Below the pieces are notes generated by a model. That model saw only the letters and a program-made list of their open reading frames with translations, was not told where the DNA came from and did no database searches. A stretch of DNA of 64,000 bases from Escherichia phage UPEC03. The stretch lies in sequence record MW250785. One strand, given 5' to 3'. The position numbers were made by a program, and so were the translations under genes. This document shows, piece after piece, positions 5,880 to 38,268 of the stretch; the stretch's first letter is position 1; each line of letters opens with the position of its first letter.

Positions 5880-5958
5880 GTTCTCGTTCCTTTTGGCTGT
5901 TCCGTTTCGATATGTGTAATATAACAAAGCCCTCACCGAGAGGCAAGGGCTTTTTTGA
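5880..5958 (-). promoter_or_regulatory. Terminator-promoter-leader module (copy 1 of 6)
   Basis: Minus strand reads AAAAAAGCCC-TTGCCT-N17-TATATTA-CACATATCGAAAC: hairpin with embedded -35-like TTGCNN, extended -10-like TGTTATATT, conserved leader. Confidence 0.45.
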
Positions 5959-32664: not shown

Positions 32665-32730
32665 GATATCCTCCTTCGTTTCGATGTGTGTAATATAACA
32701 AAACCCCTCACCATAGACAAGGGGTTTCTT
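32665..32730 (-). promoter_or_regulatory. Terminator-promoter-leader module (copy 4 of 6)
   Basis: Minus strand AAACCCC-TTGTCT-N17-TATATTA-CACACATCGAAACGAAGGAGG-ATG. Confidence 0.5.
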
Positions 32731-33349: not shown

Positions 33350-33738
33350 AATTCATATTGTGAGCGAAGGATAGCGTAAAGGCTACCGATATGGATTGTG
33401 TCTACCGGACACTGGAAAAGATCCCCGCGCATCATGTTAAACTCGATATCGTTACGTTCAACATAGTTACCGATCATTGATGTCCAACCCATCACCAGGT
33501 TATAACCATCTTCTGATAACCCATAAGCCAGCCTAACCATGATACAACGCTTATCAGCCAGTTCTACGCGCATATGGGTACTGGTATGAGTGACCTTGTT
33601 CGGGAATCTGCGAAACATTTTAGTAAGGAGTTTGGCGGTTTCAATATTGAACGCCAGTTCTTGATCCTTACTGGTCTGGTTGTCATGACGGCGATTCAGA
33701 TACTTTTCCATTTTTGGGTTGAGATTCACATGTTGCAT
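33334..33738 (-). CDS. Hypothetical protein (134 aa)
   Basis: ORF with ATG start. Confidence 0.45.
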   Translation of the reverse strand: MQHVNLNPKMEKYLNRRHDNQTSKDQELAFNIETAKLLTKMFRRFPNKVTHTSTHMRVELADKRCIMVRLAYGLSEDGYNLVMGWTSMIGNYVERNDIEFNMMRGDLFQCPVDTIHIGSLYAILRSQYELWDMK

Positions 33739-33944
33739 AATATATTCCTCACAGGTTTAAAGCGTTCTTTTCCGGTTCCATTACATGAACTGCATTTCGG
33801 AGATCGGTCGCTATCATATCGCCCAGATCCATTACATGCAACACATTTCCGTAATTTCCAGCCATACACGAACCGCATATAATCGGTTCGTGCGGCCTTG
33901 CGTTCGTGGAAGTTCATACTTTGTTGTAAACCTGAACAACCCAC
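33726..33944 (-). CDS. Small DnaJ-type zinc-finger protein (CxxCxGxG x2)
   Basis: CVACNGSG and CSSCNGTG repeats. Confidence 0.45.
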   Translation of the reverse strand: MGCSGLQQSMNFHERKAARTDYMRFVYGWKLRKCVACNGSGRYDSDRSPKCSSCNGTGKERFKPVRNILCNM

Positions 33945-34119: not shown

Positions 34120-34195
34120 TGTTTTCCTTTCTCTGTTTCGTTTCGATGTGTGTAATATAACAAAGCCCCTGCATTGCTGCAAGGGCTTTTTTCAC
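34120..34195 (-). promoter_or_regulatory. Terminator-promoter-leader module (copy 5 of 6)
   Basis: Minus strand AAAAAAGCCC-TTGCAG-N17-TATATTA-CACACATCGAAAC. Confidence 0.5.
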
Positions 34196-34196
34196 T

Positions 34197-34505
34197 TTAA
34201 TCGAATTTTTCTGGCAACTGGTCTACAAGTGCTTGAGTTTGATGAAGTTCTTCACTCAATTTATCACGATAATGAACCAATTCGCGGGTTCTTGATGCGG
34301 AATAGCTAATGAGTTTATCAGCGGTAGCGGTGTAACCGTAACCAGCACACGCGATTTCCAGTTTTGCGTTATCGCCGTTAGGTACGCGGATATGAGCATA
34401 CGCCAGCAAGTTTTTAACCGCTTGCAACAGTTCATGATCTTCTTTGCCGATGATAAACTGGTTTGGTTCTGCTGAATCCATATACAGTTCTTCGTCTTTG
34501 TTCAT
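34197..34505 (-). CDS. Hypothetical protein (102 aa)
   Basis: ORF with ATG start. Confidence 0.45.
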   Translation of the reverse strand: MNKDEELYMDSAEPNQFIIGKEDHELLQAVKNLLAYAHIRVPNGDNAKLEIACAGYGYTATADKLISYSASRTRELVHYRDKLSEELHQTQALVDQLPEKFD

Positions 34506-35035
34506 TTTGCAGCCTTATACATTTCCAGGACGCGGTTCATGTGATCTTGAGATTGAGGCACACCCGCGAAGTTCAGTTTGATGAAGAATTCCAGACGATC
34601 CTTTTTGGTGCATTCATCCAGCCCCAGGGCAGGTAATGAAATGTTTTCAAAGGCTCGTTGTTCGTGTCGTGGTATTTCGTCCCAGAACAAACGGGAACCG
34701 TCCGGCATAGGAATCCCAATTTCACCTTCGTAGACTTTGATAATCGTCGTCAGGCGTTGTTTGCCGTCGATCACTTCTACCCAATGGGTTTCGTTGAACT
34801 GACTATCAACCGCGATCGCAATGATACCGCAAGGGAAACCACTGATCAGGGTAGTCAGAAACGCATCTTGCTCTTTCTGCGTCCACACATAGGGGCGCTG
34901 GTAAGATGGATTCAGATCCAGATCTTTATTCTTCCACCAATGCAGATAACTCCCAACCATGATCGCGTGATCGCGACTGCGAAAAGTTAACTGATCGCGG
35001 ATACGGTTATGAACCGGAATATCATCTTTAGACAT
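34502..35035 (-). CDS. DUF262 / ParB-like (GmrSD N-terminal-type) domain protein
   Basis: YQRPYVWTQKEQDAFLTTLISGFPCGIIAI and VIDGKQRLTTI (DGQQR-like) signatures; 177 aa, no nuclease domain attached. Confidence 0.65.
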   Translation of the reverse strand: MSKDDIPVHNRIRDQLTFRSRDHAIMVGSYLHWWKNKDLDLNPSYQRPYVWTQKEQDAFLTTLISGFPCGIIAIAVDSQFNETHWVEVIDGKQRLTTIIKVYEGEIGIPMPDGSRLFWDEIPRHEQRAFENISLPALGLDECTKKDRLEFFIKLNFAGVPQSQDHMNRVLEMYKAAK

Positions 35036-35357
35036 GATTCACCACCCAGCCCAACAAACCAGTATTGATAGCCGCAACGGTAAGGCAAATCACCGCCAAC
35101 ACCCGCGCGTTATGAACTTTGGTTTTCAGTTCTGCGATCTCCTGATCATTTTCACTTTCGAACTCTTCACGGGTTCCATAGTAACCAGGATCAGCAGCGG
35201 TTGCCGGACGAACTGCATCTTTTTCAACGATGGTTGCATAACCGCTCGTTACTTTCGTTGCTCCGTACCAGTCACCGCGATCGTTATTGATGATCAGGTG
35301 ATCACCCTTCGCGTTATGCTTCGACTTACCAATGACAACTACACGTTCACCATTCAT
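35028..35357 (-). CDS. Hypothetical protein with C-terminal TM helix (109 aa)
   Basis: C-terminal LAVICLTVAAINTGLLGWVV. Confidence 0.45.
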   Translation of the reverse strand: MNGERVVVIGKSKHNAKGDHLIINNDRGDWYGATKVTSGYATIVEKDAVRPATAADPGYYGTREEFESENDQEIAELKTKVHNARVLAVICLTVAAINTGLLGWVVNHV

Positions 35358-37224: not shown

Positions 37225-37487
37225 TCAATATATCCCCAACGAATTTTTACGTTATCTTCTGACGCCGGACTTGTAGGAGTTGGGTATGGATAACTTTGCG
37301 CTTCCCACAGATAAACAATGGCGTGTTTTGTCAATTCTTCGATAACTTCATCGAAAGTACCGACACTGGTTTGTAAAGGCAACGAGAAAGGTTTATCGTT
37401 GGTTTCTACTTGAGCGATTGGCCCATCTACCAAGATAACACGAACCGTTGTGTGCTCAGACATATGAGCATAGATTTTGTTTTTCAT
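37221..37487 (-). CDS. Hypothetical protein (88 aa)
   Basis: Coupled ORF. Confidence 0.4.
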   Translation of the reverse strand: MKNKIYAHMSEHTTVRVILVDGPIAQVETNDKPFSLPLQTSVGTFDEVIEELTKHAIVYLWEAQSYPYPTPTSPASEDNVKIRWGYIE

Positions 37488-37822
37488 GCGGGTACATATT
37501 CCACTTTGACAGGTTTTGCAATAAGGCGTTCTTTGGTGAAGCCTTGCCCGTTACAGATATCACAAGTAACGTTGAAGTCTTCCATCTGATCAACCCAGCC
37601 AGAATCCGGTAAGCCAGAAGGATACGTGTTAACACGCACAACTTCGAACCCTTTACCATCGCATTTCGGGCATTTGTGCGGGTACTGGGATTTAACCATA
37701 CTCAGCAGTTGCCCCAGCGTTGTTGAACGATCGAAGCGTTCGACCAGTGCCATTACATCAGCAATACGAATCGAACCAGCATCAATAACGGTATACAGGT
37801 TTTTCGGTACATTTGAGCGCAT
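37484..37822 (-). CDS. Small DnaJ-type zinc-finger protein (CxxCxGxG x2)
   Basis: CPKCDGKG and CDICNGQG; ATG at 37822 (listed ORF has an implausible Cys/Ser-rich extension). Confidence 0.45.
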   Translation of the reverse strand: MRSNVPKNLYTVIDAGSIRIADVMALVERFDRSTTLGQLLSMVKSQYPHKCPKCDGKGFEVVRVNTYPSGLPDSGWVDQMEDFNVTCDICNGQGFTKERLIAKPVKVEYVPA

Positions 37823-38062
37823 AGTATATTTCTCACTTAAAAATTTTTTTGATGAAAGAGAGGAACAATCCACCACCGAACATGATCCAGTATCCCGCGC
37901 CGTCACCGTTAAACAGGACATACACAGCGACACCATAGCAAAAGATTTCCGCGATATTCAGTAAGTTTCTCATAACTCCCTCCTTTGTCTACACCAGGTA
38001 TTTTACCAGAAAGTAGATTACTGTCAACAACAAAGTTTTATCAACCCACTTATCACCAGTCA

Positions 38063-38203: not shown

Positions 38204-38268
38204 GATTGCCTCCTTTGTTTCGACACCCCTAATATAACAAAAGCCCCTGCACGAATGCAAGGGCTTTT
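38204..38268 (-). promoter_or_regulatory. Terminator-promoter-leader module (copy 6 of 6)
   Basis: Minus strand AAAAAAGCCC-TTGCAT-N17/18-TATATTA-GGGGTGTCGAAAC. Confidence 0.45.

Follow-up and report, generated by a model that had tools for sequence, protein, structure and literature searches.

The 64,000-nucleotide stretch of Escherichia phage UPEC03 (sequence record MW250785) analysed here, the window of what follows, has on its minus strand at 34502..35035 a gene that, by the window's ORF list, starts with ATG and encodes 177 amino acids. Its product is a stand-alone DUF262 protein (GmrSD_N, ParB/Srx-fold) and, judged by its predicted structure, is a stripped-down but complete DUF262 core, with the NTP-binding fold of the ParB/Srx type. 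The role we favour, at a probability of about one half, is that of an autonomous, early-expressed NTP-binding or -hydrolysing ParB/Srx-type switch or enzyme acting in trans; its biological role may be counter-defence, or else to regulate or modify DNA transactions. The sequence family itself has already been catalogued, as PHROG 1583 and in an annotation of phage RB16; what is added is a minimal, phage-specific DUF262 clade whose second motif reads DGKQR.

A DUF262 core on its own

The Pfam model PF03235 (GmrSD_N) matches residues 40-140 at E=6.9e-20 and 72.5 bits, where the gathering threshold is 33.2. This match is far above chance and supplies the profile search advised in an earlier note made from the letters alone. 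That note had picked out the peptides YQRPYVW, GFPCGIIAI and VIDGKQRLTTI, all of which were found in the 34502..35035 ORF when checked by hand against the sequence, and had described a stand-alone 177-aa DUF262 protein lacking a nuclease domain, a description that the PF03235 match, the structural model and the family profile confirm. PHROG 1583, a family of unknown function, matches at full length (residues 3-176, E=8.2e-58). An NCBIfam search at the locus gave no match, Pfam found neither PF02195 nor a helix-turn-helix (HTH) domain in the protein, and a single-sequence search of PDB sequences gave chance matches only, a family profile being needed instead.

Motif I, YQRPYVW, is encoded at 34883..34903 and motif II, DGKQR, at 34754..34768, both on the minus strand; they comprise residues 45-51 and 90-94, and the latter is the predicted NTP phosphate-binding loop. 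The region of motif III, FFIKLNFAGVPQSQDH, corresponds to 34541..34585 on the same strand and its core reads FFIKLNFAG. In a 20-sequence alignment with identity down to 22%, Q46, R47, V50 and the whole of D90-G91-K92-Q93-R94 are invariant, and W51, L95, F151, N155, G158 and H165 are at least 90% conserved; the pocket positions are likewise invariant among 39 relatives with an N-terminal extension. DGKQR is present in 120 of the 121 retrieved family members and QR..VW in 118 of them, giving QRxxVW, DGKQR and FxxxNxxG...H as the near-invariant signature of the clade. Since the canonical DUF262 motif II is DGQQR (PMC4619093), lysine at the third position marks the clade.

The family profile, run against PDB sequences, matched BrxU (E=2e-6), SspE and DndI. 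Its QR..VW aligns to BrxU and SspE, and its DGKQR to the DGQQR of all three, so that the DGQQR context, on whose recovery by alignment the earlier note had staked its assignment, is indeed recovered, although the letters themselves are DGKQR. Motif III aligns weakly to IFIRMNSGGT of BrxU (224-244) and to MFEALNTTGQPL of SspE (315-330). Motifs II and III are some 60 residues apart here versus about 120 in BrxU, with a range of about 120-210 across BrxU and SspE that follows from where these weak alignments fall. All three of the motifs lining the BrxU/SspE pocket (QRxxVW, DGKQR, FxxxNxxG..H) are kept.

An AF2 model made from the family alignment (pLDDT 86, pTM 0.80) has as its top Foldseek matches in the PDB PadC, Noc, ParB, BrxU, KorB, SspE and sulfiredoxin, all of the ParB/Srx fold. 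The PF03235 score, the three motifs and the ParB/Srx-type fold place the 177-aa protein in the DUF262 domain family. It stops about 12 residues past motif III, after which the model shows one helix only, and the nuclease domain is absent. In GmrSD, SspE, DndB and NsnA, DUF262 is followed by a helical ParBDB DNA-binding domain (PMC12065111), which as the middle domain is also the second conserved region of GmrS (PMC12065111, PMC4619093). There is no such middle domain here: matches to long DUF262 proteins take in the N-terminal half only, and just the one helix lies past motif III. The best PADLOC models are Menshen NsnA (E=1.4e-15, query residues 19-170) and PD-T4-2 protein A; all 20 family members compared match the DUF262 half of NsnA and 18 of the 20 match PD-T4-2_A, and every defence-protein match spans the DUF262 half alone, for instance positions 45-199 of the 385 in the NsnA profile.

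Several known systems resemble the phage protein in part. With GmrSD and BrxU it has the PF03235 domain and alignable motifs I, II and III in common, but it is without the ParBDB domain and the DUF1524/HNH nuclease, it has DGKQR in place of their canonical DGQQR, and it is phage-encoded and probably expressed early, by phages which appear to be without the hmC substrates of GmrSD. The NsnA and PD-T4-2 A models, the best-scoring among those for defence, are matched over the whole of the DUF262 core, but that is only half of the model. In Menshen, ParBDB is always present in NsnA, and the NsnB ABC-ATPase and NsnC effector follow (PMC12065111); none of the three accompanies the phage gene, whose neighbours are small hypothetical proteins with no AAA_15/ABC ATPase among them. 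SspE and DndI are multidomain nickases or nucleases of 560-820 aa with long insertions, whereas the phage protein is core only. The likeness to canonical ParB is limited to predicted N-domain structure, with DGKQR instead of the GERRxRA box II and with neither HTH nor C-terminal dimerisation domain, and the catalytic Cys that sulfiredoxin has in a GCHR-type motif is missing. As their defining features were sought and not found, the protein is not a GmrSD/BrxU enzyme, a Menshen component, a canonical ParB or a sulfiredoxin. In being short, stand-alone and phage-encoded it is like the phage single-domain ParB-CTPase-fold proteins that a published survey describes (bioRxiv 10.1101/2025.10.10.680097), and like the ParB-fold protein that activates a phage dioxygenase (PMC13229309). 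However, the survey proteins were collected by PF02195 (ParBc) and have a GERRxR-type box II, while the present protein belongs to the DUF262 branch, and ParB176 has a C-terminal dimerisation domain where the DUF262 protein finishes in a single helix.

A phage clade and an early-type locus

The window is from a T4-type myovirus of the RB16/RB43/GAP161 group, with nucleotide identity of 95.6% to Cronobacter phage GAP161 and 87.7% to RB16. GAP161 has the DUF262 protein without a single residue changed, and RB16 and RB43 have it at 88-89% identity; these orthologs (PHROG 1583) occupy the same frd.1-nudE locus, do not differ in kind and are annotated as hypothetical, with RB16p168 carrying the remark ‘similar to DUF262 and HNH endonuclease domain protein’. 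Among 5.8 billion proteins a single-sequence search returned 26 relatives, all of 104-297 aa, and a profile search 489 matches, the best 120 of which are 104-304 aa long with PF03235 as their only domain. The label ‘DefenseFinder protein’ stands on one family record, and we found no study of this DUF262 clade in the literature.

Searching 50,697 phage genomes by tblastn gave 276 records, with Klebsiella (116), Escherichia (53), Enterobacter (19), Cronobacter (14) and Citrobacter (12) as hosts and further carriers among phages annotated for Moraxella, Bacteroides, Tenacibaculum and Alicyclobacillus. Three 36%-identity Escherichia/Shigella matches whose taxonomy was checked are Krischvirus (RB49-like), and temperate Salmonella phage ST64B has a homolog, Sb33. 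A scan of IMG/VR yielded 206 confirmed relatives, and among the 80 loci retained the ORF lengths fall into two classes, one of 170-216 aa, to which the window protein belongs, and one of 244-304 aa with an N-terminal extension. The extended relatives carry a Tudor/PWWP/KOW-like barrel of the type usual in nucleic-acid or RNAP binding. To judge from these sequences the clade is deep and almost exclusively of phage-type contexts, which does not favour recent capture from a host enzyme.

Selection on the gene, which is a real one, is strongly purifying, with dN/dS (Nei-Gojobori) of 0.08-0.12 against its RB16-, RB43-, CfP1- and KP15-type orthologs; a ratio near 0.1 bespeaks a functional, constrained gene. 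The data support short length as the norm of the clade, with no truncation having occurred, and this, together with the dN/dS, rules out a truncated GmrSD pseudogene.

The small genes among which it lies in the window form a long cluster on the minus strand between frd.1 and nudE/57B/gene 1, a hyperplastic region. Upstream, a 109-aa minus-strand ORF with a hydrophobic C-terminal helix (35028..35357) shares 8 nt with the start of the DUF262 gene; its conservation is confined to the RB16/Karamvirus lineage, and it gave no match with Pfam, PADLOC or NCBIfam. Downstream, the ATG of a 102-aa minus-strand ORF (34197..34505) overlaps the DUF262 stop as ATGA. This second ORF corresponds to a shortened C-terminus of a protein of about 304-319 aa at the same position in CfP1-/KP15-type phages, and Pfam detects no nuclease in it. 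Gene 1, for dNMP kinase, lies further along the nudE-containing cluster.

Two minus-strand elements bracket a unit of about 4 kb that includes nudE and the DUF262 gene. At 38230..38268, its likely 5' boundary, a PeSL-like hairpin has a sigma70-type early promoter, TTGCAT-17-TATATT, embedded in it; at 34153..34189, just downstream of the 102-aa ORF and the likely 3' boundary, a PeSL-like hairpin/terminator is combined with the next early promoter. After the hairpins comes GTTATATTA; the stem contains a −35-like hexamer, TTGCAx, which 17 nt separate from TATATT. This pattern has four matches in the window versus 0.06 expected, and a third such hairpin, again on the minus strand, lies at 32728-32691. 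Composite promoter-early/stem-loop (PeSL) cassettes are known from T4-like phages (PMC2839356, PMC4122927) and the hairpins of the window fit them. Further sigma70-like sites lie upstream, at 38027-38000, with 11 of 12 positions agreeing, and the late motif TATAAATA is absent from the minus strand over the interval from 34.5 to 39.9 kb. Since the cluster it occupies with nudE is bracketed by hairpin/sigma70-like elements and lacks the late motif over that interval, and since the ST64B homolog belongs to an early-left operon, we infer that the DUF262 gene is expressed early. Elsewhere its homologs are placed quite differently, adjoining alt in RB49, in the nrdD-nrdG gap of Mm5 and in the early-left operon of ST64B between cI and int: it behaves like a module of one gene that is placed independently.

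Does it nonetheless travel with a partner? ORFs were called in 86 loci, the calling being crude in the metagenomic ones, and the DUF262 ORF was found in 77, whose DUF262 ORFs form 20 lineages at 60% identity; all neighbours up to six genes away in these 77 loci were clustered all-vs-all. Beyond T4-like synteny (nudE and the downstream ~310-aa/102-aa ORF) no neighbour family is common to the lineages. When one locus per lineage (n=20) was taken, Pfam found NUDIX three times and Dam once among the 108 neighbours within three genes, and HNH, DUF1524 or any other nuclease in none of them. Pfam likewise shows no nuclease within about 3 kb of the gene in the window, and there is none in the ORFs flanking the homologs of Mm5, NDO71 and a gut phage. 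The DUF1524/HNH partner gene that the earlier note had proposed looking for nearby is thus absent over that range.

A switch, a decoy or something else

Three roles had been suggested at the outset, a decoy for host GmrSD-like systems, a ParB/Srx-like enzyme and half of a split system, and it is the second, extended to a switch, with which the features read from the sequence are most consistent. Lacking a nuclease, a DNA-binding part and any constant gene partner, the protein most likely acts alone. A retained pocket, strong constraint, the lack of a middle domain, effector or partner, and an early-type context in virulent and temperate phages alike together make an autonomous trans-acting switch the best fit. 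The pocket formed with QR and DGKQR would bind NTP and probably hydrolyse it. By analogy with ParB, BrxU and SspE, nucleotide state would then probably switch conformation or self-association, and in SspE and BrxU NTP hydrolysis by DUF262 does drive conformational or oligomeric switching (PMC10952713). The switched protein would act in trans, early in infection, on a DNA-associated target, most plausibly a host immune component or else a phage or host enzyme of DNA transaction or DNA modification. It would accordingly be an accessory NTP switch or enzyme in its own right and neither a passive decoy nor half of a linked nuclease system.

Precedents are to be had from the other branch of the fold. 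Short single-domain ParB-CTPase-fold proteins dominate in phages and have been proposed to be independent functional units (bioRxiv 10.1101/2025.10.10.680097), and a phage ParB-like protein activates a DNA (thymine) dioxygenase in trans (PMC13229309). In that 5mYOX-ParB case function survived mutation of NTP-motif residues (PMC13229309), so conserved motifs need not mean catalysis. With a pI of 6.06 and no obvious DNA-binding module, direct binding of DNA by the DUF262 protein is uncertain.

The anti-defence decoy is the alternative that survives best, though we consider it unlikely. Here the phage-encoded sensor domain would heteromerise with host DUF262 immune proteins, or compete for their ligand, in a dominant-negative manner, with GmrSD/BrxU, SspE, Menshen NsnA, PD-T4-2 and Dazbog as candidate targets. 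In its favour, homology is restricted to the sensor/NTPase half of these defence proteins, and an early hyperplastic accessory region is a typical place for counter-defence genes. That BrxU dimerises via DUF262, and that a nuclease-less GmrS1 paralog cooperates with GmrSD2, means that interplay between DUF262 domains exists. Captured immune domains do serve phages as inhibitors, viral cas genes being an example, and this too counts for a decoy. However, every defence-protein model tried shows low similarity, the window protein reaching no more than 55 bits with PADLOC and the family profile about 31 bits with PDB chains, and the clade with its near-uniform DGKQR is deep and distinctive, with no recent capture matched to a particular host enzyme and one family spanning phages annotated for Enterobacteria, Moraxella, Bacteroides, Tenacibaculum and Alicyclobacillus. 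A passive role has no need of an NTP pocket that is invariant to about 22% identity. Moreover, on genus assignment and one review statement the T4-like genera among the carriers appear not to be hmC T-evens: no hmC T-even genus is among the carriers listed, and RB43 and RB49 package canonical DNA (PMC8056088), so the classic threat of GmrSD to DNA with glc-hmC does not apply. For these reasons the role of GmrSD decoy put forward in the earlier note is not favoured.

A bolder and about equally unlikely proposal takes the DGKQR clade as a whole to be a hitherto unrecognised phage class of NTP-dependent effectors, in which a minimal ParB/Srx switch would, early in infection, put out of action or take over some host process associated with DNA. 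The fused Tudor/KOW-like barrel may then serve to target the larger relatives, and DUF262-based immunity in general, RNA polymerase and nucleoid proteins would be possible targets.

Somewhat more doubtful still is that the protein is a cofactor or activator for a DNA-modifying enzyme encoded elsewhere in the phage, which the NTP-bound domain would help to engage dsDNA. Analogues are available: phages are enriched in proteins that join the ParB fold to N6_N4 methyltransferases (bioRxiv 10.1101/2025.10.10.680097) and the ParB-dependent thymine dioxygenase is a case in which ParB176 activates 5mYOX176 on dsDNA (PMC13229309), but these precedents involve ParB domains of PF02195 type and not DUF262. 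DNA methyltransferase genes are to be found 0.3-1 kb upstream of the homolog in RB49 and NDO71, which are unrelated lineages, and about 3-5 kb off in gut-phage loci, and RB16 encodes a type II-like methyltransferase. Yet the RB16 gene is about 21 kb from the ortholog, as by synteny it is in the window; seed-based searches place a methyltransferase-like gene at a distance of about 6 kb or less in no more than 4 of the 20 lineages; and a single one of the 108 immediate neighbours is a methyltransferase by Pfam. Methyltransferases being common in phage early modules, the background rate of such proximity is high.

The odds are poorer again for a phage-borne sensor of defence or superinfection exclusion in a split system whose effector, a nuclease or toxin, is unlinked in the phage or resides in the host. 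PADLOC and DefenseFinder-type models do match the protein, but the matches are confined to the DUF262 half, and ParBDB, found in all characterised DUF262 sensors, is lacking. GmrS and GmrD may be separate proteins, and GmrS1/GmrSD2 doublets exist; on one 203-kb T4-like contig, a single case, a gene with a TnsA-like endonuclease fold lies directly downstream of the homolog. Against this, neither a conserved partner nor a nuclease is seen across the 20 lineages, and gene context, in the window and around its relatives, lends the split system of the earlier note no support. That temperate phages such as ST64B also carry the gene counts in favour of such a sensor, but its lambdoid placement is in the lytic early-left operon and not in the position of a lysogen-expressed moron.

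Quite improbable is a phosphotransferase like Srx or SerK that acts on a small molecule or protein side chain and might in this way modify, say, a factor of the host or an immune signal derived from nucleotides. The gene does adjoin genes of nucleotide metabolism, nudE and, further off in the cluster, that for the kinase, but its motifs are those of DUF262 and not Srx. The catalytic Cys of the FGGCHR type is missing, and the only two cysteines, C69 and C141, are not conserved in the 20-sequence alignment. The modelled structure is closer to the DNA-associated BrxU, ParB and SspE, and the barrel of the N-extended relatives is likewise typical of nucleic-acid or RNAP binding. Two other ideas were set aside. 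An internal protein packaged in the manner of T4 IPI-III is disfavoured since the N-terminus, MSKDDIPVHNRIRDQ..., does not appear to resemble the T4 capsid-targeting sequence and since the ORF is also conserved in lambdoid prophages, and a DNA mimic since the pI is not Ocr-like.

What a bare domain may teach

At least six anti-phage systems (GmrSD/BrxU, SspE, DndI, Menshen, PD-T4-2 and Dazbog) use DUF262 as their sensor and NTPase module, and to our knowledge it has been studied in them only within multidomain bacterial proteins. A large and strongly constrained clade in phage-type contexts, whose members are either DUF262 and nothing more or DUF262 with a Tudor-like barrel added, shows that the core can function alone, and the bare-domain clade offers a compact model for what the DUF262 NTP cycle does. 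Should the protein prove to be merely an accessory NTPase, the gain would be a routine improvement of annotation. If instead it is a counter-defence factor or DNA-modification cofactor it would matter for host-range engineering of therapeutic phages for Klebsiella, Enterobacter and Cronobacter, phages nearly all of which have the gene. And were the whole DGKQR clade to be a class of effectors, DUF262 would be a domain used by both sides in the conflict of phage and host.

Extended relatives and their gene neighbours

The majority of the DGKQR clade members retrieved, this being the group of phage-type relatives of the window's 177-aa stand-alone DUF262 protein, are proteins of ~265 aa from gut or metagenomic phages. 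In this type, represented by gut-phage contigs L089-L092, the homolog P0046 and about 100 relatives, an N-terminal helix and then a Tudor/PWWP/KOW-like barrel are fused to the DGKQR DUF262 core, and the gut-phage early module with the DUF262 homolog also has a second ParB-like gene (DUF6551).

Annotated DNA methyltransferases are encoded just upstream of the DUF262 homolog in RB49 (RB49p189, locus L002 1951-2667) and in NDO71 (NDO71_orf142, locus L005 1479-2159). Since a Pfam scan of RB49p189 at E<=0.01 yielded no match, it may belong to a divergent methyltransferase family. IMG/VR lineage 0 has a relative close to its DUF262 gene as well. The sole case seen of a nuclease-fold neighbour is on the contig of another homolog, P0018 (GCA_016648615.1, a 203-kb T4-like phage), where the homolog is directly followed by a 154-aa Tn7 TnsA-like N-terminal protein, with restriction-endonuclease fold, and then by gp2. 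Separately, the early gene cluster that holds the DUF262 ortholog in RB16 (locus L001) includes RB16p156 (1203-2357), a 'putative radical SAM protein' by annotation, located about 4 kb downstream of this ortholog.

Small ORFs around the DUF262 gene

All the ORFs considered here are on the minus strand of the window. Directly downstream of the DUF262 gene is one of 102 aa (34197-34505). In CfP1- and KP15-type phages the equivalent position is taken by a 304-319-aa protein, and the 102-aa ORF shows homology only to the last ~85 residues of that protein and to the C-terminal end of a Phynn protein of 328 aa; it represents either a shortened form or the outcome of a module swap. Upstream is a lineage-restricted 109-aa ORF (35028-35357) that matched no database family and whose product, given its C-terminal ~20-residue hydrophobic helix (LAVICLTVAAINTGLLGWVV), is probably membrane-anchored. 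The 86-aa ORF at 35365-35625 matches Pfam DUF7415 (E=3.6e-12). DnaJ-type CxxCxGxG zinc-finger repeats occur in ORFs of 72 aa (33726-33944) and 150 aa (37484-37936), for which the Pfam DnaJ_CXXCXGXG and Anti-TRAP matches are all sub-threshold.

PeSL-like elements

A hairpin/GTTATATTA promoter pattern was observed 4 times in the window versus 0.06 expected, always on the minus strand: at 38230-38268, 34153-34189, 32691-32728 and 5917-5934. In these elements a -35-like TTGCAx lies within the hairpin stem, 17 nt before TATATT. The repeated elements are putative composite terminator/early-promoter cassettes resembling the PeSLs of T4-like phages, and they delimit gene cassettes in the hyperplastic region, the small-gene cluster that houses the DUF262 gene (34502-35035, minus strand).
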